DNA from: an uncultured Alphaproteobacteria bacterium
Lineage (GTDB): Bacteria > Pseudomonadota > Alphaproteobacteria > Bin95
Direction: 5' to 3'
DNA: 64,000 bases
Assembly: GCA_963974445.1 (NCBI GenBank)
Contig: CAXBDI010000004.1
Coordinates: forward strand, 1,068 to 65,067
The notes below the pieces were generated by a model, which was given only the letters and a program-made list of their open reading frames with translations, ran no database searches and had not been told where the DNA came from. A program made the translations under genes and the position numbers. Below, in pieces: positions 7,946 to 52,907 of this stretch. How positions within the stretch are numbered: position 1 is the stretch's first letter; each line of letters starts with the position of its first letter.

Positions 7946-10708
7946 CTATTCGGCCGCGATGGCCGGTGTGGTCCCGACGTTCGACAAAGCTGCGTCGGTA
8001 AAGATGCGCAGGCCCAGTTCCGGCCGGTAGCCGTGGATCTCCGTTACATCCAGTGCGCGCATGAACGCCAGGATGCCGGGACTGATGACCTGGCCGGGCA
8101 CCAGGATGGGGAAACCCGGCGGGTAGGGAATGATGAAGGACGCCGACACCAACTCCCGCCCGTTCGCCATCGCCTCGTCCATGGTTCGGTCGGACAATGG
8201 CATGTAGTCGCAGTTTTCCTCGTTGTAGGAGAGGAAAAACGCGGTGCGGATATCGCCTTCCGGCGTCTCCCCGGGCGAGCGGAAGGCGTCGTGGAAGCGG
8301 CTGAAGTCCGGCAGTGGCGGCACGTCGACCACCAGTGACTTAACCCGGCGGTCGAACGCCAACCGCTCCATCCGGCTGGCGTCGTCGAGCAGGTCGTCCA
8401 AGTCCTTCGCAACCTCGACCAAGACTTCGATCAGGTAGGCAACCGACGAGCGGGTCGTGCCGATGTTCGTCATGAACAGCACGGAATTGCGCGACGTCTT
8501 GTTGATCTGGATGCCGTATTTGTCCATCAAGATCTGAGTCTTAAACGTGTCGCCATCCCAGCCGGTGCCGCCGACCGCCAGCGTGATGCGGGTCGCATCC
8601 AGCACAAATTCGTCGTTGGTCCACGACTCCCAAATATCGGTCCAACCCTGTTGCGGGTCGTAATAGCTGGTGACGCCGCTTTCGCGGTACTCCTCCGGGA
8701 TCATGTCGCCGGCGGTCAGAACGCGGAAATACTTCTTCAGCAGCGGGTGAATGGCGATGGCGCGGCGCAGCGACATCGCGGCCTCGACCTGATGCTGTAC
8801 GAACTCGAAGCCCTCCAACTCCACCTGCCGCCGCCCGACGTCGAGCGATGCGATGATCTGATAGTTGGGGGAGGTCGAGGTGTGGGTCATATAGGCCTCG
8901 TGGAACGACTGCTCCACCTCGCCCTTGAAATCCTGATCGTTGACGTGGATCATCGAGCCCTGACGCAACGAGGTCAGCGTCTTGTGGGTCGATTGCGTCG
9001 CATAAACCCGAACCCGCGCATTCGGCGGCGGAATCAGGCGGGTGTTGAGCAAGGTTTCTTCGTCCGCGCCCTCAAGCTCCGCCTGTTGCGCCTCGTAAGC
9101 CGCCGCATGCTCCGGCGTCCGCAGCCGGGTGCGCAGCGTGTTGGCGGTGTTCATGCCGGTGCGCTCGCGATAGGTCGGGTTGAACCGGGCGAAGGCGAAC
9201 CAGGCCTCATCCCACAGGAATACCAGATCTCGCTTGATCGCCAGGCATTCCTCCATCACGCGCTCGACGTTGTAGACGATGCCGTCGAACGTGCAGTTGG
9301 TCAGCAGCAGCATCCGCACCCGATCCAGCTTGCCCTCCGCCTTCAGGCGCAGCAGCTTGCTCTTGATCTCGGTCAGCGGCACCGCGCCATACATGGAATA
9401 GGCGTCGAGCGGATAGCTTTCCAGGTAGACCACTTGGGCGCCCGACAGCACCATGCCGTAGTGATGCGATTTGTGGCAATCGCGGTCGACCAGGACGATA
9501 TCGCCTGGCCGCACCACCGCCTGCACGACGATCTTGTTGCAGGTCGAGGTGCCGTTGGTGGCGAAGAAGGTCTGCTTCGACCCAAAGGCTACGGCCGCCC
9601 GCTCCTGCGCTTCCTTGATCGGTCCATGCGGCTCCAGCAAAGAATCCAGGCCGCCGGAGGTCGCAGACGTTTCCGCCAGGAAGATGTTGGGCCCGTAAAA
9701 CGCGCCCATATCCTGAATCCAGTGGGAGCGCGTGATGGATTTGCCACGGCTGATCGGCATGGCATGGAACACGCCGGTCGGCTGCTTGGAGTATTCCTTC
9801 AACGCATTGAAAAACGGCGTCTTATGACGGGCCGCAACACCGCGCAGGATGTTGAGATGCAGTTCCAGGAAATCCTCCTGGTTATAGAACACCCGGCGGC
9901 AGAGCCCCAGATCGAGCCCGGCGACGTCCTCGACCGAGCGGTCGGTGATCAGGTAGGCGTCGAGCTCCGGCCGGATTTTGGCGATCTGGCGGCAGAGTTC
10001 CGGGCCGTAATCCTGCGGCGCCAACTCGTCAATGTCTTCGTCCTGCATCCGCGTCAGATAGCGCTGCAGGATCGGCAGTTGGTTTTCGGACTTCAGCGTC
10101 AGCCCGGGCCGGACGATGACAGCCTGAATATTATGGTTGAACAGGATGGCGATCAGCGCGTCTTCGAAGCTGGGCGTCACCACCGCCTCGTAGGTGAAGG
10201 CGTCTTCCTCGCGCCGTATCCGGGCCAGGCTTTGCCTTTGAAAGCGTTCCTGATAATCGGTGACCTGGTCGACGATCAATATCTCGAAATATGGCTTTTG
10301 CAGCGCCCGCGACTCGATGGACGCATGCAGGTCGTCATCGGTTTCCTCGTATTCATTGTCGCTACGGCCCAACGGCACAGAGCGCCGGCGATACGTGCCG
10401 GACGTCAGGGCGCGGGCGATGCGGCGGGTTGCGAACGCCAGGTCGTCGAAATTGCGGTTTTCCAACAGCTTGCGCAGATGCTGGAAGGCGGCCCGACCCG
10501 GAAAGGCCCAATACATTTCGATGGGCGCCAAAGACTCCAGCAGCGCTTGCGCCTTGGCAAAGCTGGTCTTCGATTTCGCGGGTTTCTCGTCGCTGAGCCG
10601 AACCAGGGTTTCGCAGGTCTCGCGCAAGGTGCTCCAGCGGTCCTGGCGCAACTGCACGGCACTATAGTAGTCGCTCAGGGACGCTTCCGTCCCCTTCATC
10701 GAATCCAT
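7946..10708 (-). CDS. Orn/Lys/Arg decarboxylase-family PLP enzyme (fold type I), unusually long at 920 aa with an extra N-terminal domain.
   Basis: It has a wing-like region (KPYFEILIVDQVTD…) and a PLP major domain (…FFATNGTSTCNKIVVQAVVRPGDIVLVDRDCHKSHHYG…, …ATQSTHKTLTSLRQGSMIH… with the PLP-Lys). About 140 aa precede the wing domain with no assignable function. Confidence 0.75.
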   Translation of the reverse strand: MDSMKGTEASLSDYYSAVQLRQDRWSTLRETCETLVRLSDEKPAKSKTSFAKAQALLESLAPIEMYWAFPGRAAFQHLRKLLENRNFDDLAFATRRIARALTSGTYRRRSVPLGRSDNEYEETDDDLHASIESRALQKPYFEILIVDQVTDYQERFQRQSLARIRREEDAFTYEAVVTPSFEDALIAILFNHNIQAVIVRPGLTLKSENQLPILQRYLTRMQDEDIDELAPQDYGPELCRQIAKIRPELDAYLITDRSVEDVAGLDLGLCRRVFYNQEDFLELHLNILRGVAARHKTPFFNALKEYSKQPTGVFHAMPISRGKSITRSHWIQDMGAFYGPNIFLAETSATSGGLDSLLEPHGPIKEAQERAAVAFGSKQTFFATNGTSTCNKIVVQAVVRPGDIVLVDRDCHKSHHYGMVLSGAQVVYLESYPLDAYSMYGAVPLTEIKSKLLRLKAEGKLDRVRMLLLTNCTFDGIVYNVERVMEECLAIKRDLVFLWDEAWFAFARFNPTYRERTGMNTANTLRTRLRTPEHAAAYEAQQAELEGADEETLLNTRLIPPPNARVRVYATQSTHKTLTSLRQGSMIHVNDQDFKGEVEQSFHEAYMTHTSTSPNYQIIASLDVGRRQVELEGFEFVQHQVEAAMSLRRAIAIHPLLKKYFRVLTAGDMIPEEYRESGVTSYYDPQQGWTDIWESWTNDEFVLDATRITLAVGGTGWDGDTFKTQILMDKYGIQINKTSRNSVLFMTNIGTTRSSVAYLIEVLVEVAKDLDDLLDDASRMERLAFDRRVKSLVVDVPPLPDFSRFHDAFRSPGETPEGDIRTAFFLSYNEENCDYMPLSDRTMDEAMANGRELVSASFIIPYPPGFPILVPGQVISPGILAFMRALDVTEIHGYRPELGLRIFTDAALSNVGTTPAIAAE

Positions 10709-16711: not shown

Positions 16712-17371
16712 CTAGCGGTGCGCCACCAGATCGAGGAACTCCCGGCGCATCACCGGATCGGTCTTGAAAACGCCGCGGGTGCAGGTCGTCAATGTGTCGG
16801 CGCCGGGCTTGTGTACGCCGCGGGTCGTCATGCACATGTGCGCCGCCTCGATCAGCACGGCCACGCCCTTGGGCTGCAGCACGTTGTTGATGGTATCCGC
16901 GATCTGGGCTGTCAGGGTTTCCTGCACCTGCATCCGCTTCGCGAACGCATCGACGACCCGCGCCAGCTTGGAGATGCCGACGACGCGCCGGTCGGGCAGA
17001 TAGGCGACGTGCGCCCGGCCGATAATCGGCACAATGTGGTGCTCGCAATGCGACTCCACCCGAATGTCGCGGACGATGATAATTTCGTCGTAGCCGTCGA
17101 CCTCCTCGAAGGTACGGCCGAGGATATCGACCGGATCGTCATTGTAGCCGGCAAAGAAATCCTGCCACGCGCCCACCACACGCTTCGGCGTGTCGATCAG
17201 GCCCTCGCGGTTGGGGTCTTCGCCGATAAAGGCAATGAGCGTGCGAACGGCCTCCTTCGCCTCTTCCTTACTCGGGCGCCGGCGGGAGGCCGGGGAGGTG
17301 CGATCGTCGGCCATCTGCGGCTCCTCTGCGTACGTGCCGGCAGGCGCCGACGTGTCTATTCTGTCCATCAT
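16712..17371 (-). CDS. folE: GTP cyclohydrolase I.
   Basis: Conserved core …[20 protein letters not shown]…[22 protein letters not shown]…[17 protein letters not shown]…. The start ATGATG is preceded by GGAGA. The track ORF extends to 17416. Confidence 0.85.
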
Positions 17372-17505
17372 ATTTCTCCGCGCTGCCGGACCGCACCACA
17401 TAATCGACGGTCCCACAAATTACGTCCATTCCAGTAGGTTGGATCACTCGCAACGCGAGCCGTTCGATGCTGTGACGAACCTGATACGCACAGAGGCGCC
17501 CAGCC

Positions 17506-19020: not shown

Positions 19021-19746
19021 CTAGCCGTAGGCGCGGGCGACTTGCCCATGCATGGTGCACGCCGCTTCCGCAAGGGAGACGAACACTGGCGCGACGGCTT
19101 CCGGCGGCCGCACCGTTTCCGGGTCCTCGCCCGGAAATGCCTGCTCGCGCATGGCGGTCCGCACGGTGCCCGGGTCCAGCAGGTTGGCGCGGATGGAAGT
19201 TTTCACAACCTCTTTCGCATAGCTGGACACCAGGGTCTCCAGCGCCGCCTTGCTGGCGGCATAGGCGGCCCAATAGGCGAACGCATCCATGGCGGCGGCG
19301 CTGGTCACCATAATGACACGGCCAGCCTCGGAGAGGCGCAAACCTGGATCGAAGGCGCGCAGCAGCCGCCAATTGGCGGTCACGTTCAGGTCCATCGCCG
19401 CCTGCCAGTCCTTCGGACTCAGGTGGCCGACCGGTGTCAGCGGCGGCAGCACGCCGGCATTGCCGACCAGTATGTCCAAGCGGCCGAAACGCCCGGCAAC
19501 AGCCGCCGCCATGCGATCGATCTCGTCGAATTGGGTGAGGTCGAGCGGCACCAGAGTCGCCTCGCCACCGGCAGCGCGCACCCGGTCGTCGGTTTCCTCC
19601 AGCCCGCCTTGGGTACGCGCGACCAGGATCAGGTGGGCGCCCTCAGCCGCAAACCGCTCCGCCACCGCCGCGCCCAGCCCTCGCGACGCGCCGGTGATCA
19701 GGGCGATACGTCCGGCGAGTCGTCCCTCAGACTTCTGCATCATCAT
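19021..19746 (-). CDS. SDR-family oxidoreductase.
   Basis: TGASRGLG cofactor motif, NAG motif and the Y-x3-K region (…YAASKAALE…). The start is set at MMMQ (GGAG upstream) rather than the longer track ORF. Confidence 0.75.
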   Translation of the reverse strand: MMMQKSEGRLAGRIALITGASRGLGAAVAERFAAEGAHLILVARTQGGLEETDDRVRAAGGEATLVPLDLTQFDEIDRMAAAVAGRFGRLDILVGNAGVLPPLTPVGHLSPKDWQAAMDLNVTANWRLLRAFDPGLRLSEAGRVIMVTSAAAMDAFAYWAAYAASKAALETLVSSYAKEVVKTSIRANLLDPGTVRTAMREQAFPGEDPETVRPPEAVAPVFVSLAEAACTMHGQVARAYG

Positions 19747-19754
19747 CGCTCCGG

Positions 19755-21230
19755 TTACACCAATTCGGGCCGCTCGCGCTTGCCGGCCGCGCCGTGGTCG
19801 CGGTCCAGCAGGCGCACCGGATAGTCGCCGGTAAAGCAGGCATCGCAATAGAAGGGGGCCGCCTTGTCTCTGCGCTCCTGCCCCATGGCCCGGTACAGAC
19901 CGTCGATGGAGATGAAGGCCAGGCTATCGACGCCGATTTCCTTGGCGATGCCCTCCGGATCGAGGCGGGCGGCAATCAACTCATCCCGCTCCGGCGTGTC
20001 GATGCCGTAGTAGCAAGGGTGCGCGATCGGCGGCGAAGAGATGCGCATGTGGATTTCCCGGGCCCCGGCGCTCCGCATCATCTCGATGATCTTGCGGCTG
20101 GTGGTGCCGCGGACGATGCTGTCGTCGACCAGCACGATCCGCTTGCCCTCGACCATGGCCCGGTTCGGATTGTGCTTCAGCTTAACGCCCAAATGGCGGA
20201 TTTGCGCCGTCGGCTCGATAAACGTGCGCCCGACATAGTGGTTGCGGATGATGCCGTATTCGAACGGCACGCCGGCCGCCGCAGCATAGCCGATGGCGGC
20301 AGGCACTCCGGAATCCGGCACCGGCACCACGACGTCAACGCCACCCGGCGGATGCGATTCCCGCGATAACTCCGCACCGATGCGTTTGCGGGCTTCGTAA
20401 ACGCTCGTGCCCTCCATCAGGCTGTCGGGTCTGGCGAAATAGATAAACTCGAACACGCAGAACCGGCTCGGTTTCTTCGGGAATGGAAAGTGCGAGTGCA
20501 GGCCCTCGGCGTCGATGACCACCAGTTCGCCCGGCGCCACGTCGCGCACGTATTCTGCGCCGATAATGTCGAAGGCACAGGTCTCCGAAGCCAAAATATG
20601 TGCGTCCCCCAGCCGGCCCAGCACCAGCGGGCGAATGCCCAGCGGGTCGCGCACACCGATCAGCTTTTTCTGCGACAACGCGACCAGACTGTAAGCGCCC
20701 TCCACCTGGTGCAAGGCGTCGATCAGGCGATCCACTAGAGATTCCCGTACACTGCGCGCGATCAGGTGAACGATCACTTCGGTATCGGTGGTGGACTGGA
20801 ACAGCGACCCGCCGGACAGCAGCTTTTGATGCAGCGCGCGGGCGTTGGTGAGGTTGCCGTTGTGGGCGATGGCGAACCCGCCGAAGGCGAACTCAGCGAA
20901 CAGCGGTTGAATATTGTGGACAGCGCCCTCGCCCGTCGTCGCATAGCGGTTGTGGCCGATGGCGGCATAACCGAGCAGCCGGGAAATGACATCTTCCTTG
21001 TTCAGCACATCGCCGACCTCGCCGACGCCGCGTTGGGCATGAAAACGCTTGCCGTCGAAGCTGACAATGCCCGTCGCCTCCTGCCCGCGGTGCTGCAGCG
21101 CGTGCAGCCCGAGCGTGGTGTGCGCCGCCGCCTCCTCCGCACCATAAATGCCGAACACCGCGCATTCTTCGCGCGGGCCTTCCTCGTCGATCTGGCAGAT
21201 TGTCGTTGCAGCCGCTGGGTTTAAGGGCAT
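19755..21230 (-). CDS. purF: Amidophosphoribosyltransferase (glutamine PRPP amidotransferase) with an N-terminal propeptide.
   Basis: Ntn Cys in …REECAVFGIYG…, and a PRTase motif (…VLVDDSIVRGTTS…). The start is chosen at MPLNP (GAGGA 4 nt upstream). The track ORF overlaps cvpA, so its upstream part is spurious. Confidence 0.85.
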   Translation of the reverse strand: MPLNPAAATTICQIDEEGPREECAVFGIYGAEEAAAHTTLGLHALQHRGQEATGIVSFDGKRFHAQRGVGEVGDVLNKEDVISRLLGYAAIGHNRYATTGEGAVHNIQPLFAEFAFGGFAIAHNGNLTNARALHQKLLSGGSLFQSTTDTEVIVHLIARSVRESLVDRLIDALHQVEGAYSLVALSQKKLIGVRDPLGIRPLVLGRLGDAHILASETCAFDIIGAEYVRDVAPGELVVIDAEGLHSHFPFPKKPSRFCVFEFIYFARPDSLMEGTSVYEARKRIGAELSRESHPPGGVDVVVPVPDSGVPAAIGYAAAAGVPFEYGIIRNHYVGRTFIEPTAQIRHLGVKLKHNPNRAMVEGKRIVLVDDSIVRGTTSRKIIEMMRSAGAREIHMRISSPPIAHPCYYGIDTPERDELIAARLDPEGIAKEIGVDSLAFISIDGLYRAMGQERRDKAAPFYCDACFTGDYPVRLLDRDHGAAGKRERPELV

Positions 21231-28139: not shown

Positions 28140-28847
28140 ATGGCCGCCAAATTGACCGAAGCCGACCTCGCCGCACTGCGCGCGCTGGACACGCCGACCG
28201 TGTGCAACGCGCTGGAGGAGATCGACGCAAAGTTCCGCGACCGCGGCTTCACGACGGAGCCGCTGGTCTGCCCCTTCCCGCACCTGCCGCCGATTGTCGG
28301 CTACGCCCGCACTGCCTCGTGCCGCAGCATCAACCCCGGCGCGAAGAGCGGTGCTGCGTCAACCGAGATGCGGGTCAACTACTACGCCTATGTCAACGAC
28401 GGCGACGAGCCGAAAATCAGCGTCATCCAGGACCTCGACGGCGGCGGCCGTGGCCATGGGGCGTTCTGGGGCGAGGTGCAGTCGAACGTGCACAAGGCGC
28501 TGGGCTGCCTCGGCGTCGTCACCGACGGCTGCATCCGCGATATTCCGGATTGGGCCGACGGTTTTCAGGCGCTAGCCGGCTCGATCAAACCCAGCCATGC
28601 CCATGTGCACGCCGTCGACTTCGGCGGCCAGGTGATGATCTCCGGCATGATCGTCAACCACGGCGACCTGATCCACGCGGACCAGCACGGCGCCGTCGTC
28701 ATCCCGCTGGAGGTCGCCCGCGAAGTGCCCGCCGCCGCGGCCCGCATCGCAGTCAAGGAGAAGGTGATCCTGGACATCGCCAAGTCGCCTGACTTCTCGT
28801 TCGAGAAACTGCGCGCCGCCATCGCCGGGCCGAAAGACATCCACTGA
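28140..28847 (+). CDS. RraA-family protein (RraA / 4-hydroxy-4-methyl-2-oxoglutarate aldolase-like fold).
   Basis: 235 aa with the RraA-like core (…GEVQSNVHKALGCLGVVTDGCIRDIPDW…HADQHGAVVIP…). Confidence 0.65.
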   Translation: MAAKLTEADLAALRALDTPTVCNALEEIDAKFRDRGFTTEPLVCPFPHLPPIVGYARTASCRSINPGAKSGAASTEMRVNYYAYVNDGDEPKISVIQDLDGGGRGHGAFWGEVQSNVHKALGCLGVVTDGCIRDIPDWADGFQALAGSIKPSHAHVHAVDFGGQVMISGMIVNHGDLIHADQHGAVVIPLEVAREVPAAAARIAVKEKVILDIAKSPDFSFEKLRAAIAGPKDIH

Positions 28848-29370
28848 TGCCACGGCTACACCCCTTCGCCATTGCCGCGACCCTAGCGATGGTCGTGCTG
28901 ATCGTCGTCTCCAACATCGCGGTGGAGATACCGATCAACGATTGGCTGACTTGGGGTGCGTTAACCTATCCCGTCTGCTTTCTGGTCACCGACCTGACCA
29001 ACCGCAGATTAGGGCCGAGTACCGCCCGGCGCGTCGTCTATGTCGGGTTTGCCGCCGGCGTGGCGATGTCGCTGGTCTTCGCGAACGAGCGCATCGCCCT
29101 TGCCTCCGGCACCGCCTTCCTGCTGGCGCAACTGCTGGATATCAGCGTGTTCGACCGCCTGCGCCGCAGCGCGTGGTGGCATGCGCCGCTGGTATCCTCG
29201 TTGCTGGGGTCGGCGGTGGATACGGCGCTGTTCTTCAGCCTGGCCTTCGCCTTTACCGGCCTGCCCTGGATCACCTGGGGCATCGGCGATTTCGGCGTGA
29301 AGATCGCGGTCGCGCTGGCGATGCTCATCCCATTCCGCCTGCTGATGCCAAGTCTGCGACCGGCTCAACT

Positions 29371-29374
<4 letters not shown>
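28847..29374 (+). CDS. Queuosine-precursor transporter, YhhQ/DUF165 (VUT family).
   Basis: 175 aa polytopic membrane protein with the motif region [15 protein letters not shown] … [13 protein letters not shown]. Its start overlaps the RraA-like stop by 1 nt. Confidence 0.65.
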
Positions 29375-31236: not shown

Positions 31237-32268
31237 ATGCGCGCCGTTTGGGTGGAAGATTGGAAACCGTTCGAGCAATTGCAACTGGAGCAGGTGCCGA
31301 ATCCTGTGATCGGCCCGCGCCAAGTCCGGGTTAGGACACAGGCAGCCGGTGTCAGTTTCGCGACCAGCCTGGTGGTCGAAGGCAAATATCAGCGCAAACC
31401 GCCCCGCCCCTTCGCCCCCGGTACGGAGGTTGCGGGCATCGTAACAGAGATCGGGTCCGAGGTGACCCGGTTCAAGCCTGGCGATCGGGTCTGCTCGGTC
31501 CTGGATTGGGGTGGCTTGGCTGACGAAGCCGCAGCGTTCGAGGTCAACACCTACAAAATCCCAGACGGCATGCCGTTCCCCGAAGCGATCTGCCTCACCA
31601 ATTCCTATGGCACGAGTGCGGCGGCCTTCACCTGGCCTCACTTGCTCCAGGTGAAGCGGGGAGATTGGGTGCTGGTGCATGGTGCTGCGGGTGGCGTTGG
31701 TATTGCGGCGGTAGAGATCGGCAAGATTCTCGGCGCGACCATCATCGCCACTGCAAGCTCCGACGAAAAGCTGGAGCTAGTGAAGGCGCATGGCGCGGAT
31801 CACACCATCAATTATCGCCATGAAAATTTCCGGGACCGCGTGCTGGAAATCACTAATGGCCGTGGCGTCGATGCCGTCTATGACCCCGTCGGCGGCGACG
31901 TGTTCATGCAGTCTCTACGCTGCATGGCACCGGAAGGCCGGATCATGCCGGTCGGCTTTGCCAGCGGCACGATCCAGCAAATTCCGGCCAATATCCTGTT
32001 GGTGAAGAACCTGACGGTCTGCGGACTCAATGCAGGCTACTATGTCGGTTGGTCGCCAAACGATGTCCGCTACGAATACGAAGACCGGATGCGGGCGTTA
32101 ATGACCTTGATTTTTGATTGGTTTGAGGCTGGCCAGATCAACCCCGTCTCCGGCGGTGTCCTCCCACTGGAACGCTTCCAGGATGCCATGGCAGAAGTGT
32201 TGGGCCGACGGGCGCAAGGCCGTATTTCCATCGTGATGAACGAAGAAGCGCAGAAGCACGGCTTTTGA
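31237..32268 (+). CDS. NADPH:quinone oxidoreductase / zinc-free MDR-family dehydrogenase.
   Basis: MDR fold with a GAAGGVG cofactor motif. The start is at MRAVWVED. The track ORF begins at 31012. Confidence 0.75.
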   Translation: MRAVWVEDWKPFEQLQLEQVPNPVIGPRQVRVRTQAAGVSFATSLVVEGKYQRKPPRPFAPGTEVAGIVTEIGSEVTRFKPGDRVCSVLDWGGLADEAAAFEVNTYKIPDGMPFPEAICLTNSYGTSAAAFTWPHLLQVKRGDWVLVHGAAGGVGIAAVEIGKILGATIIATASSDEKLELVKAHGADHTINYRHENFRDRVLEITNGRGVDAVYDPVGGDVFMQSLRCMAPEGRIMPVGFASGTIQQIPANILLVKNLTVCGLNAGYYVGWSPNDVRYEYEDRMRALMTLIFDWFEAGQINPVSGGVLPLERFQDAMAEVLGRRAQGRISIVMNEEAQKHGF

Positions 32269-32278
32269 AGGACTTCCC

Positions 32279-32788
32279 ATGTCCGCTGTCACTGCCACCA
32301 TCTCCTTCGGCAGTAATCTGGGCGACCGGCATGCGACGCTTGCCGGCGCCTACGCCGCGTTCTGCGCCGCGCCTGAGATCGAACCGCTCGCCGCCTCGCG
32401 CCTGTACGAGACCGCGCCGGTCGGCGGGCCTGGCGGACAGGGGCGCTTTCTGAATAGTGTGCTGAAGGTCGCAACGTCCCTCGACCCGCATGCTTTGTTG
32501 GCTCATTGCATGGCGGTGGAGCAGCAGTTCCAGCGTGAGCGCAACATCCGTTGGGATGCGCGCACGCTCGATCTCGACGTGTTGCTGTATGGTGAGCGTA
32601 TCATCACGACCGCTGATCTGGAGGTACCGCACCCGCGGATGCACTTGCGCCGGTTCGTGCTGGTTCCCTTGACCGATATTGCCGCCGACGTGACGCACCC
32701 GGCCTTGGGCGAATCCATCGCAGACTTGCTGGCAAAGCTGCCGGTGGAGCCCGGCGACGTCTATCCGATCGCCGACACCTGGACGTGA
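32279..32788 (+). CDS. folK: 2-amino-4-hydroxy-6-hydroxymethyldihydropteridine diphosphokinase (HPPK).
   Basis: 169 aa. HPPK motifs: …ISFGSNLGDR…, …YETAPVGGP…, …RWDARTLDLDVLLYG…. Confidence 0.85.
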   Translation: MSAVTATISFGSNLGDRHATLAGAYAAFCAAPEIEPLAASRLYETAPVGGPGGQGRFLNSVLKVATSLDPHALLAHCMAVEQQFQRERNIRWDARTLDLDVLLYGERIITTADLEVPHPRMHLRRFVLVPLTDIAADVTHPALGESIADLLAKLPVEPGDVYPIADTWT

Positions 32789-32795
32789 TAATACC

Positions 32796-33689
32796 ATGAT
32801 CAACGCCGACCAGATATTCGCCCGCTGGCAGAAACACAGTGACGCCCTCGCCGCCCCCGTGCGCACCGTAGCCCTGCCGAATCTCGGCCTGACATTCAAA
32901 GACCGCGCCTACCAGATGGGTGTCGTGAATTTCAGCCGCGACAGCTCCTATCGCGAAAGCGTCGTGTTCAGCCAGGAACAGGCGGACTATCGCTGCGATA
33001 AGCTGGTGCTGGAAGGCGCTACCATCCTCGACCTTGGCGCGGAATCGGTTGGCGATTTCGCATCCCGCGTCGATGCCAAGCGCCAGATCAAGACGCTGCT
33101 ACCGACCATCCGCCGCCTCGCCGAAAAGGGCGTGCCCGCCTCCGTCGAGACCTACTATCCAGAGGTGGCGGAGGCGGCGCTGGAAGCCGGCGCGGCGATC
33201 ATCAACCTGACCGGACGCGATGAAGACGGCGAGATTTACAAGCTCTGCGCTAAGCACAAGGCTGGCCTGATCCTCTGCTACATGGCTGGGCGCAATGTCC
33301 GCGATAACAAGGCCTTGCCCAGCCGTGAGGCGCTGATCGATGCGCAGTTCGACTTCTTCCACGAACAGTTGGACAAAGCCACCGCCCTGGGCGTCGAGAC
33401 CATCTGGGTCGATCCGGGCCTGGGCTTCTACAACAACCTGCCGGACGGGCCGGGGCGGGTGGCGTTTCAGATCGAGAACGCGCTGGAGGCGTTCCGCTTC
33501 CGCACCCTTGGCTGGCCGATCTGCCTGACGCTGGCCTCGCCGGTCTACTGGTTCCGGGAGGAGGTGCGGGTCGCCGAAACCGCCTATGCCATGCTGTGCA
33601 TGTTGTCGAAAGCCAACCTGATCCGCAGCCACGAGGTCGCGCGTGTGACGCCAATTCTGGCGGCGCAGGACCTGGTGCCGGCCTGGTGA
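32796..33689 (+). CDS. Dihydropteroate synthase-family (pterin-binding TIM barrel) protein, divergent.
   Basis: 297 aa. It shows the DHPS-like pattern (…ATILDLGAESVG… ≈ DIGGESTRP; …AAIINLTG…; …GLILCYMAG…; …WVDPGLGF…). Several canonical FolP residues are substituted: N-terminal GVVNFSRDSSYRES instead of GILNVTPDSFSDGG, and G→A, T→V and RP→GD in the pterin loop. Confidence 0.6.
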   Translation: MINADQIFARWQKHSDALAAPVRTVALPNLGLTFKDRAYQMGVVNFSRDSSYRESVVFSQEQADYRCDKLVLEGATILDLGAESVGDFASRVDAKRQIKTLLPTIRRLAEKGVPASVETYYPEVAEAALEAGAAIINLTGRDEDGEIYKLCAKHKAGLILCYMAGRNVRDNKALPSREALIDAQFDFFHEQLDKATALGVETIWVDPGLGFYNNLPDGPGRVAFQIENALEAFRFRTLGWPICLTLASPVYWFREEVRVAETAYAMLCMLSKANLIRSHEVARVTPILAAQDLVPAW

Positions 33690-33699
33690 GCCTGCAGCC

Positions 33700-34944
33700 G
33701 TGACCGAGCGCGACCGGCTCGTCGCCGGCCAGTACGAGGCCTATCCCTATCCCGACCGCAAGCCGGCGGACGAGCGCAAGCGCCTGATCGAGGGCTCGCC
33801 CTCCGCCCTGCCGGAGCTAACGCACTATCTGTTCCACGGCGAAACGCCCAACCCCTTCCGCGCCCTGATCGCCGGCGGCGGCACCGGCGACGCCGCGATC
33901 ATGTTGGCCCAGCATTGCGCGAGCGCGGGGCTGGATGCGGAGATCGTCTACCTCGATATGTCCGCCGCCGCCCGGGCTGTGACCGAGGCCAGAGCCAAGG
34001 TGCGCGGGCTCACCAATCTGCGTTACGTCACCGGCTCATTGTTGGAGGTGGGTACGCTGGCGCCCGGACCCTACGACTACATCGATTGCTGCGGCGTGCT
34101 GCACCATCTGGAGCAACCGGGGGACGGCCTGAAGGCGCTGGCCGGGCAGTTGAAGCCCGCCGGCGGCATGGGGCTGATGGTGTATGGCGCGCTTGGCCGC
34201 CGCGGCGTCTATGAGACGCAGGCGCTGCTGCGCCATCTCGCCCCGCCGGACCGGCCCGACCGGGAGCGGCTGACCCAAACCCGCCGCCTGTTGGAGGCGC
34301 TGCCCCGCACCAACTGGTTGCGCCGCAACCCCTTCGTCCAGGATCACCGCGAGGCGGGAGACGCCGGCCTCTACGACCTGCTGCTGCACGCCCGCGACCG
34401 GGCCTATACGGTTGAAGAGTTGGCCGAATTCGTGGGCGCGGCGGAGTTAAACATCGCCGCATTCATCGAACCGGCCCGTTACGATCCCGCGACGTACCTG
34501 CGCGATCCGCGTTTGTTGGCACCGTTGCAAGTACTTGATCCAATTGCCCGAGCCGCCGCGGCGGAGGCTTTGTGCGGCAACCTCCGCAAGCACATAGTGT
34601 ACCTGACCCCGGCGGGCGGGCGCCAGGGCCGCACGGCCGATCCGGCAGACCGTTCCCTGGTGCCGGTACTGCCGCGCCACGCGCCGGAGGTTTTGGCCAA
34701 AGCGCTGCGCAGTGGCAGCCTGAGCGTCGATCTTGAGGGCTTTCCGGCCAAGTTCCCCGCTCCCCCTCGCGCCGCCGCCATCGTGCAGCGGATGGATGGA
34801 AGGCGCTCTATCACCGCTATTCTCGGCGAATTGCGCGCCGCCGATCTGGCTCTTAGTGAGGATGCGGCGACGGAGGCGTTCAATGCGGTCTACCGGCTGT
34901 TGAACGGGCTGAACCTGCTGTTGTTGCGACGATCCCGCGCTTAG
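33700..34944 (+). CDS. Class I SAM-dependent methyltransferase (414 aa) with a C-terminal extension.
   Basis: GTG start 11 bp after the DHPS-like stop. Motif I LIAGGGTGD and the post-I acidic residue (…VYLDMS…). The C-terminal ~200 aa has no assignable function. Confidence 0.65.
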   Translation: MTERDRLVAGQYEAYPYPDRKPADERKRLIEGSPSALPELTHYLFHGETPNPFRALIAGGGTGDAAIMLAQHCASAGLDAEIVYLDMSAAARAVTEARAKVRGLTNLRYVTGSLLEVGTLAPGPYDYIDCCGVLHHLEQPGDGLKALAGQLKPAGGMGLMVYGALGRRGVYETQALLRHLAPPDRPDRERLTQTRRLLEALPRTNWLRRNPFVQDHREAGDAGLYDLLLHARDRAYTVEELAEFVGAAELNIAAFIEPARYDPATYLRDPRLLAPLQVLDPIARAAAAEALCGNLRKHIVYLTPAGGRQGRTADPADRSLVPVLPRHAPEVLAKALRSGSLSVDLEGFPAKFPAPPRAAAIVQRMDGRRSITAILGELRAADLALSEDAATEAFNAVYRLLNGLNLLLLRRSRA

Positions 34945-35470
34945 TGCGAGAGGCCTAAGCTTCGTCCATTCCTTCTCCCGTGCTCGACACGGGATCCATG
35001 CCTGAGGCTTGCCAGACAGGCTCCCGGCCTATGATCGCCTCTCAGGCATGGACCCCGGGGCAAGGGGAATGAGGGTAAAGAGGCCAGCGACCGGCAATGA
35101 AGCCGCGGTCTTAGTGCGAGAGGCTTAAGCTTCCTCCATTCCTTTTCCCGTGCTCGACACGGGATCCACGCCTGAGGCTTGCCAGACAGGCTCCCGGCGT
35201 GCCGTAGTCTCTCAGGCATGGACCCCGGGGCAAGCCCGGGGCAAGGGGAATGAGGGTAAAGAGGCCAGCGACCGGCGATGAAGCCGCGGTCTTAGTGCGA
35301 GAGGCCTGAGCCCCAGTCTATTCTTTTCCCGTGCTCGATACGGGATCCATGCCGGAGGCTTGCCAGACAGACTCCCGGCCTGTGATCGCCTCTCAGGCAT
35401 GGACCCCGGGTCAAGCCCGGGGCAAGGGGGAAGAGGGTAAAGAGGCTAGCAGCCGGCGATGATGCGTGAC
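34941..35470. repeat. Tandem array of three ~170-180-bp palindromic (hairpin-forming) repeat units. Unit starts are 34941, 35111 and 35292.
   Basis: Each unit starts ttagtgcgagaggc… and contains an inner palindrome cccgtgctcga(c/t)acggg plus long imperfect inverted arms (ggatccatgcctgaggcttgccagacag… / …cctctcaggcatggaccccggggcaaggggaatgagggtaaagagg). Copies are about 90% identical. The small ORFs called here are artefacts. Confidence 0.85.
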
Positions 35471-47693: not shown

Positions 47694-48053
47694 ATGGCGA
47701 GGCGAAAGCAACGAGTCCGGCGGTTCTGGCCTGACGAAGAGAAGCGCCGGATCGTGGCACAAGCGCTGGCTTCGGGGGTATCGGTGGCCCAGGTTGCCCG
47801 GCGCTATGACCTCAATGCCAACCAGGTCTTCAACTGGCTGCACGATCCACGCTACCAGCCAGACGACGACGTTCTAGCCGAGACACAGTTCCTGCCTGTC
47901 GAGATTGTCGGGGAACCACGAGCCGAGCGTCAGCTTGAGCCGCCTGCCGCAGGGTATATCGAAGTCGCGCTGGCGAACGGACGCAGCATCCGGCTGATCG
48001 GCGATGTCGATCCGGATGCGGTCGCGCGATTGGTCCGGAGTCTGGAGACATGA
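47694..48053 (+). mobile_element. IS66-family accessory protein TnpA (orfA).
   Basis: 119 aa (…WPDEEKRRIVAQALASGVSVAQVARRYDLNANQVFNWL…). It has a 4-bp ATGA-type overlap with the next ORF, as in IS66 tnpA-tnpB. Confidence 0.8.
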
Positions 48054-48349
48054 TCCCGGTTCCGGCATCAACAAAGGTCTGGCTGGCGGGTGGCATCACC
48101 GACATGGGCAAGGGCTTTGCCGGATTGGCTGCGTCGGCGGAGGCAATCCTGAACACCGATCCCTACAACGGGCATCTGTTCGTGTTCCGCAGCCGCCGCG
48201 GTGATCTCATCGAGGTTATCTGGTGGGACGGCCAGGGCGCTTGCCTGTTCTCGAAGCGTTTGGAGAAGGGGCGCTTTGTCTGGCCGTCCGTCGCCGACGG
48301 CAAGGTTCACGTCACTGCAGCCCAACTTTCCGTGCTGCTCGAAGGCTGA
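48050..48349 (+). mobile_element. IS66-family TnpB (orfB).
   Basis: 99 aa ([67 protein letters not shown]…), the classic IS66 OrfB. Confidence 0.8.
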
Positions 48350-48513
48350 GGAGGGTCAGACAACGATCCGGGGGATCGTTTTTTCGACGAAGGACTGGCG
48401 AATGCCGCTACGAACCTGGCGGCCGTTGGTGGCAGGTTAAAACTCCCGGATTTTTGCCGTTTTCCGGTCGTTTTGGGATTCCCTGGCCGTGTTGATTTTG
48501 CTAGCATTTCCAT

Positions 48514-49260
48514 ATGCTCGACGAGGTCAAAACCCTGCCCAACGACCCGGCTCTCCTCAAAGGATTGATCGTCTCGCTGACGTCGGAGTTGACCAGCCGT
48601 GATGTCTTGATCGCCAAGCTGCAGCACCAGCTTTCCGGTCTCCGCCGCCATCAGTTCGGCTCCCGTTCGGAAAGCATCGATCAGCTTGAACTGACCCTGG
48701 AAGAGCAAGAGATCGCCCGCGCCGCCGAAGCGCCAGCCATCCCACCCGACCAAGCTAAGGGCGAGAAGCGCCAGCCCAAACGCCGCCCCTTGCCGAAGAA
48801 CCTGCCTCGGCGCGAGACCCTGTTATCGCCGGGCGAGATCTGTGCCGGTTGCGGCGGCAAGTTGCGTGCGTTCGACCAGGATGTGACCGAAGAATTGGAA
48901 TACATTCCAGGCCGGTTTGTCGTGAACCGGATTGTGCGGCCCGTTGCCTGGCAGGCGATGCCTGCATCGCCGAGAAGGGCGTATGGCCTGTTCCTGCTGC
49001 GAACAGATCGTGCAAGCGCCACTGCCGTCCCGTCCCATTGAGCGCGGGCGGCCAGAGCCGGGATTGCTGGCGCACGTGCTGGTCGGCAAATATGCCGACC
49101 ACTTGCCGCTCTATCGCCAAAGCCAGATATTCGGGCACGATGGCATCGATCTGCCTCGTTCGACACTGACCGACTGGGTCGGGCAAGCAACGAACCTGCT
49201 AGAGCCATTAGCAGAGGCCATTGGCCGTTCTACAGCGGCAATCTGGATGAGAAGCGCATT
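48514..49260 (+). pseudogene. IS66-family transposase TnpC, frameshifted and 3'-truncated.
   Basis: The N-terminus has an LZ region and a zinc finger (…GEICAGCGGKLR…). It continues in another frame (48932..): …LLAHVLVGKYADHLPLYRQSQIFGHDGIDLPRSTLTDWV…. It stops about half-way to the expected ~500 aa. Confidence 0.75.
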
Positions 49261-49289
49261 GCCTCGCCAGAACTGTTCCCGCAGGATCT

Positions 49290-49905
49290 TTGCTTGCCGC
49301 ATTAGAGGTGTTCCTGAGGGTCACTTCGGAGGCAGGCATGAGGCGGATCAGCATGGCAACGAGAGACGAACTCCTGAAGGCGGTGGCATCGCGATACCGG
49401 TGCGCACGGCGCGCCGAGAAGGGCCGGATTTTGACGGAGTTTGCGGAGATCTCCGGATATCATCGCAAGCATGCCGAGCGGCTTCTCCGGCGCGGGCCCG
49501 TTGTGGACCGCTCCCGGTCCCGGCCCGAGCGGCGGGTATACGACGAGCGTCCGCCGGATGGTGGGCTATCGCCGATACTCGGGCATCACCGCGGCAACCG
49601 AACTGGCGCGGCTCTATCGCAGCATGCCATCGTTCAAGCTGATGGAGAAGACCCGTGACGGCGCCCGGGTGGCGAAGCGCTACCATGCTCCGCTGACACC
49701 GTGCCAGCGCGTCCAGGCCCATCCGGCCGTTGCCCACGAAACGAAGGTTGCGCTGGCGGTGCGGTTCGGGACGCTCGACCCGGTCATGCTGCTCCACGAC
49801 ATCCGACAGGCACAGGCCCGGCTCACGGCGCTGGCCGATGCCACGCCATCCGCCGAAGCCAGCGTCGGCGCCAAGGCCGACGTGGAGCAGTTCCTCGAGG
49901 TGTAG
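49290..49905 (+). pseudogene. Transposase-like fragment of unassigned family, split over two frames.
   Basis: 49290..49658 (…ISMATRDELLKAVASRYRCARRAEKGRILTEFAEISGYHRKHAERLL…) then 49441..49905 (…KTRDGARVAKRYHAPLTPCQRV…). HTH-like N-terminus. Interrupted and flanked by other IS remnants. Confidence 0.4.
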
Positions 49906-50008
49906 CGCGACAATCTGAGTGAGAAGCGGGCGACGATCAAGATGAGAACCCAGTGTCGCAGCGTATTGATGATCGCGGCGAAGATTGTCGCGCGCAAGCT
50001 TTGCTTTT

Positions 50009-50686
50009 TCAGTCTGATTGTCGTGGAGCGTCAGCGGCGGCGGTATTGACGGGTGTGGCGTATGAGGCGGGTCGTCCGCGTCCCCGCTTTTTCTCGATGG
50101 CAACGCGTCGTCGGTAGCTTTCGACGTTCATCTCGAAGATGGTGGCGTGATGGACCAGTCGGTCGACGGCGGCGAGCATCATGGCGGGGTCGGGAAAGAT
50201 CTTACCCCATTCGCCGAAGGGCTGGTTGGCGGTGATCAGCATCGATCGTCGCTCGTATCTGGCACTGATCAGTTCGAACAGCACGCTGGTCTCGGCCTGA
50301 TCCTTGGCGACGTAGGCGAGGTCGTCGAGGATCAGCAGGTGATAGCGGTCGAGCCGATTGATGGCGGCTTCGAGGCCGAGTTCGCGGCGGGCGACCTGGA
50401 GCTTCTGGACGAGGTCCGTCGTCCGGGTGAAGAGCACGCGCCAGCCGTTCTCGATCAGGGCGAGGCGGATGCGAGATGGCTCTTGCCTCCGCCGGAGCCG
50501 CCCCAGGAACACCACATTCTCACGCCGGGCGACGAAGGCCAAAGCCGCCAGGTGTTCGATCTGCTTGTGCGGAACCGTCGTTGCAAACTTGAAGTCATAC
50601 TCTTCCAACGTCTTCACCACTGGGAAGCCGGCCATCCGCACCAGCGTCGCGGCTGAGCGCGCCCGCCGGCAGTCCCGCTCCGTCAC
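50009..50686 (-). pseudogene. IS21-family IstB helper ATPase, degenerate.
   Basis: IstB motifs are present (…FPVVKTLEEYDFKF…, …LLILDDLAYV…, …RSMLITANQPFGEWGKIFPD…LDRLVHH…). The Walker A GPPGVGKTH is not recognisable and is replaced by GRLRRRQEPSRIRLA. Confidence 0.65.
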
Positions 50687-51425: not shown

Positions 51426-52463
51426 CTAAACCGAGATGATGACCTTGAGCGCCTTGGTCTTGGCGGCATCGCCGAAGGTGTCATAGGCCGCAACGATCTC
51501 ATCAAGCTTGAAGTGGTGGGTGATCAACTGCGTCGGATCGATCTTCTTTGATGCCACCGTCTTGAACAGCATCGGGATCGTGACCGTATCGACCAGCCGG
51601 GTGGTGATCGCGATGTTGCGGTCCCAGAGTTTTTCCAGATGCAGATCGACCTTCTTGCCATGCACGCCGACGTTGGCGATGGTCCCGCCCGCTGTCACAA
51701 GCTCCTGACACAACTCGAAAGTGGCGGGAATCCCGACAGCCTCGATCACGGTATCGACGCCGCGGTTCTCGGTCAGTTTCATCACCGCGTCCAGCGCCTT
51801 GCCATCGGAACTGTTGATCGTCGCCGTCGCGCCGAATTTGGTTCCGGTCTGCAATCGGTTGTCGTCCAGATCGATCATGATGATCTCGGCGGGTGAGTAG
51901 AATTGCGCGGTCAGAAGCGCCGCCAGCCCGATCGGCCCCGCCCCGACGATCGCCACGGTGCTGCCGGGGGCGATCCGACCGTTCAGAACCCCGCATTCGA
52001 GGCCCGTCGGCAGGATGTCGCTGAGCATCACCAGCGCCTCTTCATCGGTGCCCTTCGGGATGTGATAGAGGCTCATGTCGGCATGCGGCGTGCGCACGAA
52101 TTCGGCCTGGGTTCCGTCGATTGTATTGCCCAGAATCCAGCCGCCCGTCGTGCAGTGCGAATACATCTGCTTGCGGCAATAGACGCATGTGCCGCAAGCG
52201 CTGACACAGGAAATCAGCACATGATCTCCAGCCTTGAAGGCGGTCACGGCAGGCCCGACCTTGTCGATGATGCCGACCCCTTCATGCCCCAGGATACGGC
52301 CCGGTTCACAGGTCGGCACGTCGCCCTTGATGATGTGCAGATCGGTGCCACAGATCGTGGTTTTCGACATCCGCACAATGGCATCGGTAGGTTCGGATAT
52401 CTCGGGCTTCGGGCGATCCTCCAGCGATTTTTTTCCTACAGCCTTATAGACCAGCGCTTTCAT
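51426..52463 (-). CDS. Zinc-dependent alcohol dehydrogenase (MDR family).
   Basis: 345 aa from MKALVYK. Catalytic Zn ligands (…CGTDLH…GHEGVG…), structural Zn motif CVSACGTCVYCRKQMYSHC and NAD motif GAGPIGL. The track fuses it to an upstream transposase fragment (to 52907), which is an artefact. Confidence 0.85.
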   Translation of the reverse strand: MKALVYKAVGKKSLEDRPKPEISEPTDAIVRMSKTTICGTDLHIIKGDVPTCEPGRILGHEGVGIIDKVGPAVTAFKAGDHVLISCVSACGTCVYCRKQMYSHCTTGGWILGNTIDGTQAEFVRTPHADMSLYHIPKGTDEEALVMLSDILPTGLECGVLNGRIAPGSTVAIVGAGPIGLAALLTAQFYSPAEIIMIDLDDNRLQTGTKFGATATINSSDGKALDAVMKLTENRGVDTVIEAVGIPATFELCQELVTAGGTIANVGVHGKKVDLHLEKLWDRNIAITTRLVDTVTIPMLFKTVASKKIDPTQLITHHFKLDEIVAAYDTFGDAAKTKALKVIISV

Positions 52464-52758
52464 GATCGGTGTCCTTGTTTTGGAAGCCGAAGCTTCAATT
52501 GAGCGCCACCGGACTTCGGCATGCATGGATTGCGTGCCGCCTGCTGATGTGCCCGTTGGGGCGCAGGTGCTTTTGGACAGGTGCGATATCCAACAGAATG
52601 ACACAGATGCAGGAGGCCGTTGTTGATCCAGATCAATGTTCGGGTTTCGCAGCAACTCAACCTCGAGGCCCGGGACCGCCAGCCAGCAGTCCGGCGAGCA
52701 TTTGCAGAAGCCACGCAATCGTGATGAATAAGGCGGCGGATCTGCCACCGAACAGGTT

Positions 52759-52907
52759 TTGCGCGGCCTGGCCCAGGTTCGAGGCAGATCCCGCTCCCCC
52801 GAGGGCGGTTTCGACGACGTCCGAGACGTCTTTGCCGGGCGCTGCAGCTTCAGCACCAACTCCACCAACTCATCCTTGCTGAGCTTCTCGAGGGCATCAC
52901 GATCCAT
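52759..52907 (-). pseudogene. Transposase N-terminal remnant, copy 2 (MDRDALEKLSKDELVELVLKLQRPAKTSRTSSKPPS…).
   Basis: It holds direct-repeat copy B (52801-52886) and has the same orientation and motif as 47482-47664. Confidence 0.5.

Follow-up and report, generated by a model that had tools for sequence, protein, structure and literature searches.

A divergent dihydropteroate synthase-like protein encoded beside folK in an uncultured alphaproteobacterium belongs to an uncharacterised branch of its family

The folK gene cluster

The 64,000-nucleotide stretch of DNA analysed here, from an uncultured alphaproteobacterium (contig CAXBDI010000004.1; “the window” below), carries a compact four-gene cluster in which folK, the gene for 6-hydroxymethyl-7,8-dihydropterin pyrophosphokinase (HPPK), is followed after 7 nt by a gene for a homologue of dihydropteroate synthase (DHPS, the folP product), the subject of this report. 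An earlier sequence-only reading of the window had described folK, this DHPS-like gene and a gene for a large S-adenosylmethionine (SAM)-dependent methyltransferase as a tight trio separated by 7 and 10 bp, and all three open reading frames (ORFs) were found on the plus strand with that spacing (Table 1). It had overlooked a fourth member, an MDR-family oxidoreductase gene that ends 10 nt 5′ of folK on the same strand; the start of this gene is likely the one given in Table 1, taken from the 345-aa orthologue in a related locus (L003), and its product scores 208.7 bits on TIGR02824, under the 296.8-bit cut-off. The window HPPK passes the cut-off of its own model, TIGR01498 (129.4 versus 54.1 bits).

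Third-position G+C content (GC3) is high in all four cluster genes (0.79–0.83 for the three first described), and comparison with orthologues gives dN/dS values of 0.11–0.18 for the DHPS-like gene, 0.10–0.24 for the HPPK gene and 0.17–0.28 for the methyltransferase gene (0.07–0.28 across all four); the cluster genes are real and under purifying selection. Rfam and promoter/terminator scans of 30.5–36 kb of the window gave nothing useful. The gene for the first pterin step, folE, is encoded separately, 15 kb from the cluster, as the earlier reading had it.

Table 1. Positions of the cluster genes, folE and the downstream repeat array in the 64,000-nt window.
Feature	Position	Strand	Basis
folE (GTP cyclohydrolase I)	16712-17416	-	PF01227 248 bits
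MDR-family (PIG3/quinone-oxidoreductase-like) NAD(P)H oxidoreductase	31237-32268 (start likely)	+	ADH_N, ADH_zinc_N and ADH_zinc_N_2 matches
folK (HPPK), 169 aa	32279-32788	+	PF01288 127 bits, TIGR01498 129.4 bits
DHPS-like TIM-barrel protein, 297 aa	32796-33689	+	PF00809 111.5 bits, TIGR01496 117.8 bits
Class I SAM-dependent methyltransferase, 414 aa	33700-34944	+	Methyltransf_12/25/11 matches, residues 58-155
Tandem array of three ~181-nt repeat units that contain inverted repeats	34940-35465	no strand	Repeat families D1-D3, I1-I3

Divergence of the DHPS-like protein

The DHPS-like protein aligns with positions 3–254 of the 258 in the DHPS model TIGR01496, and its score, 117.8 bits, falls short of the 162.6-bit curated threshold. 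The scores of five relatives drawn from other clades are 115–122.5 bits, and on the same model a canonical FolP from Azospirillum (whose gene, found in a PLSDB search, lies beside glmM) and E. coli FolP (a reference sequence checked to be identical to PDB 1aj0) score 318.2 and 343.8 bits, respectively. All six family members thus fall 40–47 bits under the curated FolP cut-off and about 200 bits under real FolPs, and the earlier description of the protein as a truly divergent DHPS homologue is borne out. More than 120 protein-database clusters match it at 49–85% identity, all about 295 aa long and all labelled dihydropteroate synthase, and an alignment of 29 members has a mean column identity of 66% and invariant motifs of its own. 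The AlphaFold2 model (pLDDT 86.6, pTM 0.88) contains eight strand-helix units by DSSP, a (beta/alpha)8 barrel, and the top 50 Foldseek matches in the PDB are all DHPS or Sul enzymes (TM-scores 0.68–0.85, identity 19–26%).

The 29 members were aligned with E. coli FolP, Azospirillum FolP, Sul3 and Thermus DHPS, and residues are given here in E. coli numbering. DHPS acts on 6-hydroxymethyl-7,8-dihydropterin pyrophosphate (DHPP), and in DHPS structures the pyrophosphate is bound by N22, R255 and H257 and the pterin by D96, N115 and D185, with F28, P64, K221 and S222 shaping the site for p-aminobenzoic acid (pABA). Nine residues are invariant in all 29 members (N22, S27, E60, S61, N115, D185, R235, R255 and H257), while the family-wide replacements are T24S, F28S/T, S29Y, D30R, G31E, G32S, R63G, D96E, D116L and, in the R220-K221-S222 region, R220S, K221S/P and S222V, with P64 variable. 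The canonical pterin-pocket set (D96, N115, D185, K221, R255) is therefore incomplete in the family, since D96 is Glu in 25 and K221 is Ser or Pro in 26 of the 29 members. The two window motifs that had been taken as signs of divergence, GVVNFSRDSSYRES and DLGAESVGD, are present in the protein, and the replacement of hallmark loops extends across the family: loop 1 reads S-R-D-S-S-Y-R-E-S instead of TPDSFSDGG, with Y-R-E in 29/29 members; loop 2 reads A-E-S-T/V-G instead of ESTRPG, with R63 changed to Gly in 28/29; and the changes around K221 are likewise conserved. F28, R63, K221 and S222 are present in all six canonical DHPS compared, except that R63 is Asn in Sul3.

When the list of invariant residues is set against the DSSP strands, these residues map to the C-terminal tips of the strands and to the loops next in sequence, the catalytic face of the barrel, which argues for a conserved, remodelled active site rather than decay. 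The pattern of residues kept and lost suggests that the DHPP site has been retained and the acceptor site rebuilt; candidates for residues standing in for R63 and K221 are R53, R141, R169, R234 and R236. The divergence is a family trait and not a one-off, and the protein belongs to an uncharacterised branch of the DHPS family and is not an ordinary FolP; the clade adds a new variant to that family and does not amount to a system of a new kind. No NCBIfam model covers it (the window protein matched DHPS and Sul models only), and our literature searches found no described FolP-like or DHPS-like paralogue of this clade.

Distribution of the core family and its wider sister clade

Patterns specific to the core family, which leave more distant members out of the count, found 136 relatives among 185,579 species genomes (one genome per species). 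They are made up of uncultured Alphaproteobacteria/Rhodospirillales metagenome-assembled genomes (MAGs) of the window's own clade (78–93% identity), Geminicoccaceae, Hyphomicrobiaceae, Filomicrobium, Neomegalonema, about 40 Roseibium/Labrenzia genomes and eight Acidimicrobiia MAG contigs, and in a distance tree the Acidimicrobiia sequences (8 loci) nest among the alphaproteobacterial ones. The distribution of the core family is rare, patchy and cross-phylum. Among the records with a member are OZ244951.1 (window clade), NZ_CP134616.1 and NZ_OZ245929.1 (Roseibium), and CBDCWE010000003.1 and OZ244119.1 (Hyphomicrobiaceae). NCBI annotation puts the gene symbol folP on the Azospirillum gene and no symbol on the Roseibium family member, and Stappia/Labrenzia are not listed in the supplement of PMC1971073.

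One DHPS-like member is recorded on a 49-kb circular replicon of Roseibium porphyridii (L085, NZ_CP120864.1), which is non-mobilizable and holds, besides a FolB-like/DHPS-like/SDR cassette (below), nitrate-assimilation and hydroxyproline-catabolism genes. A gap on this replicon that is free of coding sequences (CDS) is probably an rRNA operon, and many Roseibium draft contigs stop about 1 kb past the cassette, as is consistent with a repeated rRNA operon; the recorded “plasmid” might not be genuine but an artefact of assembly.

When 1.84 billion representatives were searched with a profile, the core family came out as one cluster (504 bits), with full-length relatives at 200–280 bits and canonical FolPs at 160 bits or less. 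The earlier reading had raised the question of how the protein stands to FolP in phylogeny, and we find the core and wider members grouped together and separate from canonical DHPS. Both share T24S, S29Y, D96E, a hydrophobic residue in place of D116, I117T, D258E and the loss of K221 and S222, and they differ from each other in the K221 region. This DHPS-like branch is ancient. Among its wider members is a protein of the chlorarachniophyte alga Amorphochlora amoebiformis (P0247/P0401) in which the DHPS-like domain is fused to pterin-4a-carbinolamine dehydratase (PF01329 40 bits versus a cut-off of 26), and whose nearest relatives make up a large subclade of Verrucomicrobia, for which there are over 600 metagenome matches.

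Conserved neighbours

The ORFs around the DHPS-like gene were clustered in 84 related loci, and one cassette recurs in the order FolB-like, HPPK, DHPS-like, SDR-family reductase, often with start and stop codons that overlap by 4 bp. FolB-like genes were found in 44 of these loci, HPPK genes in 43 (by tblastn) and the SDR gene in 55; no other gene is conserved across clades. The proposed tie between the DHPS-like gene and HPPK is supported by the same count, the two being adjacent in 43/84 loci. The FolB-like protein scores 46.6 bits, under the folB equivalog cut-off of 72.15, and, on inspection by eye next to E. coli FolB, appears to keep the aldolase residues E, Y, E and K. In the 55 loci the cassette SDR carries the motif TGX3RXG, which marks pteridine reductases (PMC1971073, PMC13259868). 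Its best model is NF006597 (PruA/Brucella FolM), at 245–256 bits and so below the curated cut-off of 281; Brucella FolM/PruA itself scores 450 bits on this model, and one cassette SDR is 39% identical to Brucella FolM.

The Verrucomicrobial subclade shows a related arrangement, with a TmpR-like SDR gene 3′ of the DHPS-like gene in 22 of 86 loci (about 65 of which have room downstream). The best model of this SDR is NF012208, for the dihydropteridine/dihydrofolate reductase TmpR, at 202–210 bits and below the cut-off of 325. The SDR pairings in the core and Verrucomicrobial clades suggest that the deep, recurring pair is a DHPS-like protein with a reductase of the pteridine/dihydrofolate type. 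A distant EgtD-like (Methyltransf_33-fold) gene adjoins the Verrucomicrobial DHPS-like gene in 24/86 loci. Sister-clade operons with the TmpR-like SDR and the EgtD-like protein lie at 8001–11468 of L096, at 6041–10232 of L101 and in about 24 of the loci L102–L181; these are Verrucomicrobia-type metagenome contigs, the EgtD-like protein is 60% identical between two of the loci, and an EgtC-like amidotransferase gene or folE is sometimes beside it. The DHPS-like cassette itself is adjoined by folE in two related loci, one of the core family (L014) and one of the wider clade (L101).

Neither Roseibium nor the window clade has the full cassette. Roseibium has the FolB-like, DHPS-like and SDR genes without HPPK, and there the cassette appears to be followed by an rRNA operon (the R. 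porphyridii record has a gap there without CDS, and there are conserved ORFs that resemble rRNA artefacts); the window clade has the MDR reductase, HPPK and DHPS-like genes without the FolB-like gene or the SDR. The cassettes are thus incomplete in complementary ways, and the missing steps must be encoded elsewhere in these genomes. No pteridine-reductase SDR was found in the 64-kb window. An SDR gene on its minus strand (19021–19848, first seen as a hit at 19351–19710) was set aside, as its product has an ordinary TGX3GXG motif without the pteridine-reductase arginine; this gene follows purF directly, and folE is 1.6 kb away.

In most window-clade loci an MDR gene lies directly 5′ of the HPPK gene, often as 2–3 tandem copies; paralogous tandem copies (two or three) are found in L005, L006, L009 and L092, and the window has one copy 5′ of folK and another MDR gene 19 kb off, at 51426–52907. 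MDR genes are also found near the cassette in a few other clades, loosely and at identities of 40–44% or less. Given this loose recurrence and how very common MDR genes are, we do not accept the MDR reductase as a conserved partner and take it as a weak lead at most. RraA-like genes also recur a few kb or less from the cassette in three clades: copies are known in the window (by Pfam) and L003 (by annotation), and in two other clades from L019 and L083 (from sequence only). Housekeeping genes stand between them and the cassette, and we take this recurrence as probably coincidental. At 28847–29374 of the window a gene for a Vut_1 (YhhQ-type) transporter abuts the RraA-like gene.

Comparison with known systems

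With canonical FolP (TIGR01496; E. coli 1aj0, Yersinia pestis 3tyz) the family shares the TIM-barrel fold, N22, N115, D185, R255, H257 and an HPPK neighbour, but it lacks F28, R63, P64, R220, K221 and S222, has Glu at position 96 and its own Y-R-E in loop 1, and is rare and patchy. The Sul1–Sul4 enzymes are, like it, horizontally spread DHPS homologues and are about 28% identical to the window protein in pairwise alignment, but Sul3 retains the DSFSDGG loop and the SRK motif (K221), and the window protein scores 26–65 bits on the Sul models against cut-offs of 475–600. DHPS analogues of the MptH/MJ0301 type in the methanopterin pathway are DHPS-family enzymes that condense DHPP with an acceptor other than pABA; the likeness is one of concept, and neither RFAP synthase nor tetrahydromethanopterin (H4MPT)-dependent one-carbon (C1) genes were found among the scanned window genes or the conserved neighbours.

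Mycobacterial FolP2 (Rv1207) is a DHPS paralogue that is reported not to complement E. coli folP and is thought to serve another pathway (PMC1971073). The window protein is closer to Thermus DHPS (84 bits) than to FolP2 (57 bits to PDB 2vp8), and FolP2 clusters with cell-wall genes (PMC1971073), whereas the DHPS-like family clusters with FolB, HPPK and pteridine reductase. In Helicobacter pylori, DHPS is fused to a dihydropteroate reductase (PMC1971073); this fusion and the FolM/PruA/TmpR systems resemble the family in coupling a DHPS-type enzyme to a reductase of the dihydropterin ring, but the cassette partners, unlike the H. pylori fusion, are separate SDR genes in place of a flavin domain, and the window itself is without such an SDR.

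The methyltransferase and the sequence downstream

The sequence-only reading had gone on to propose that folK, the DHPS paralogue and the 414-aa methyltransferase together make a methylated, non-folate pterin-arylamine of the methanopterin type. The methyltransferase matches generic class I methyltransferase domains in a core of residues 58–155, and its C-terminal ~250 aa have no Pfam match; it is not of the UbiE/UbiG type, since it scores 17.6 bits on UbiG TIGR01983 against a cut-off of 102.95 and its PF01209 match (22.1 bits) covers the SAM-binding core only. The 7- and 10-bp gaps suggest co-transcription, and the gene is probably co-transcribed with the DHPS-like gene. It is kept, under purifying selection, beside the DHPS-like gene in seven window-clade loci (L005–L010, six of the 84 surveyed, and L092). 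The EgtD-like gene of the Verrucomicrobial loci, although a different one, could make methylation a recurring theme, and the methyltransferase that makes 2′-O-methylmonapterin in Agrobacterium is still unknown (PMC4488946).

Against a place in the pathway, those seven loci are the only ones where it adjoins the DHPS-like gene. In the sister lineage L003/L011 (78% identity), whose gene order matches that of the window throughout from Vut_1, RlmN and IalB to the ccm genes, HPPK and the DHPS-like gene are kept without any methyltransferase, and the methyltransferase gene is also absent from all of the 70+ more distant DHPS-like loci. It belongs to a very large family (6108 matches), whose orthologues at 54–55% identity in other alphaproteobacteria lie 3′ of the same RlmN–IalB pair, beside SpoU and asparaginase II genes (with a 4-bp overlap), or, in another case, between FabD-like and acyl-CoA dehydrogenase genes; no pterin genes were found near these orthologues, and the window methyltransferase has no similarity to the Verrucomicrobial EgtD-like protein. 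The simplest history would be that the methyltransferase gene was already in this neighbourhood and that the reductase, HPPK and DHPS-like genes came to lie beside it. On these comparative grounds we reject it as a partner and regard it as a neighbour by chromosomal history, outside the pterin unit. The methanopterin analogy finds no support either: Pfam and NCBIfam scans of 49 of the 58 called window genes (the remaining nine were named from sequence or not identified) and the conserved neighbours in the 84 + 86 loci contained no RFAP synthase (MptG) or H4MPT C1 gene.

The repeat array downstream (Table 1) runs from the methyltransferase stop codon to a D-serine-dehydratase-like gene. Its copies are 86–98% alike; the unit recurs nowhere else in the window and in none of the related loci, Rfam gave no credible match for it, and in the place of the array relatives carry a 165-aa ORF with a weak MopJ-like match. 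Farther downstream, the region at 47694–50686 holds IS66-family remnants (a helix-turn-helix transposase ORF, TnpB_IS66 and a truncated IS66 transposase N-terminus) followed by an IS21-type IstB gene on the other strand, and looks like a decayed insertion-sequence patch.

Possible function of the DHPS-like protein

We tentatively favour, with slightly less than even confidence, the reading that the DHPS-like protein transfers pterin from DHPP to an acceptor that is not pABA, and that a pteridine reductase goes on to reduce the product. In such a mechanism, the protein would bind the DHPP made by the HPPK encoded 7 bp upstream and ionise it as DHPS does, and, given its rebuilt pABA pocket, it would pass the pterin-methyl group to an acceptor different from free pABA. 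The resulting 7,8-dihydropterin would, in most relatives, be brought to the tetrahydro form by the pteridine-reductase-type SDR encoded immediately downstream, and in the window clade, which is without this SDR, the upstream MDR oxidoreductase may stand in. We infer further that the gene would be an extra, accessory copy beside a normal folP, a status favoured by the patchy cross-phylum spread, the complementary incomplete cassettes, the sub-threshold FolB-like protein, the missing NCBI folP symbol and the algal fusion.

Several observations weigh against this reading. A tblastn search with E. coli FolP, Sul3 and Thermus DHPS found no second DHPS homologue in the 64-kb window or in the 84 related loci (about 20 kb each, ~1.2 Mb). 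The cassette has no conserved companion gene for making an acceptor, which leaves pABA or pABA-glutamate as possible acceptors, and a set of FolB, FolK, DHPS and reductase genes would also be expected of a self-contained folate operon that uses an alternative dihydrofolate reductase. The reduction step is least certain in the window, whose clade has no SDR partner. The difference in the K221 region means that core and wider clades may not share one function, and the dehydratase fusion is a single case among the top 120 matches.

The main rival explanation, in our estimate a real possibility but a rather doubtful one, is that the protein is a true, highly divergent DHPS that joins DHPP with pABA or pABA-glutamate, either as the sole FolP of these organisms or as an isozyme that is redundant and has an alternative dihydrofolate reductase of the FolM/PruA/TmpR type for its partner. 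The universal label dihydropteroate synthase, the retained pyrophosphate and pterin residues, the location in folB-folK-X-reductase clusters (with folE adjacent in two of them) and the lack of a second DHPS homologue in the window and the 84 loci are all in its favour, and the SDR partners match families with reported dihydrofolate reductase activity, TmpR (NF012208) and FolM (PMC1971073). It must, however, accommodate scores so far under the FolP cut-off and real FolPs, the loss of R63, K221, S222 and F28, a distribution unlike that of a housekeeping gene, and a Roseibium member without the folP symbol that NCBI gives the Azospirillum gene. The FolB-like protein of the cassette is likewise below its cut-off, and the eukaryotic relative is fused to an enzyme of tetrahydropterin recycling.

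A second alternative, which we judge unlikely, is a pterin-binding protein with some other transferase chemistry or none, such as a reduced-pterin carrier or sensor (for PruA-type signalling or cofactor recycling) or a methyl-tetrahydropterin module like those of MeTr/MetH. PF00809 also includes methyltetrahydrofolate-binding modules, the pterin-contacting lysine of DHPS is lost, and the partners are PruA-type reductases, which are known from pterin signalling (PMC4488946, PMC13259868). The dehydratase to which the Amorphochlora domain is fused acts, moreover, on tetrahydropterin cofactors. On the other side, N22, R255 and H257, which hold pyrophosphate in DHPS, are invariant, and the gene is tightly and often translationally coupled to that of HPPK, an enzyme for which we know of no product but DHPP. 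The protein aligns over the full length of the DHPS model, keeps the pyrophosphate residues and has no corrinoid-related neighbours, and so does not belong to the MeTr/MetH type; no corrinoid protein, PruR or DcpA homologue was found as a conserved neighbour.

The three-gene methanopterin-type scheme of the sequence-only reading we consider very improbable, given that the methyltransferase adjoins the DHPS-like gene in the window clade only and that no methanopterin genes turned up among the scanned window genes and the loci (above); what stands of that interpretation is a DHPS homologue that is divergent and out of the ordinary, linked to HPPK, while the methyltransferase role does not.

Returning to the transferase with a non-pABA acceptor, a broader proposal can be built on it, one that we think possible but more likely wrong than right: the clade would make an undescribed conjugated pterin by joining DHPP to some common metabolite that is not pABA, and a pteridine reductase dedicated to it would carry out the reduction. 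The product would serve as a tetrahydropterin cofactor or signal recycled through a 4a-carbinolamine route, as the algal fusion hints. It would stand next to folate and methanopterin as a third cofactor line derived from DHPP, found across Alphaproteobacteria, Acidimicrobiia, Verrucomicrobia and one alga or more.

DHPS is the target of the sulfonamides and among the best-studied enzymes of vitamin synthesis, and databases label every homologue of it dihydropteroate synthase. A cross-phylum clade that is always annotated as FolP could mean an unrecognised pterin product, or a DHPS/dihydrofolate reductase bypass naturally insensitive to antifolates; if the redundant-isozyme version of the divergent DHPS were true, natural antifolates would not affect the bypass that the pair forms. 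In both cases the deduction of folate capability and of susceptibility to sulfonamides and trimethoprim from genomes would have to change, and pterin biochemists would gain a defined two-to-four-gene unit that is present in cultivable Roseibium strains.

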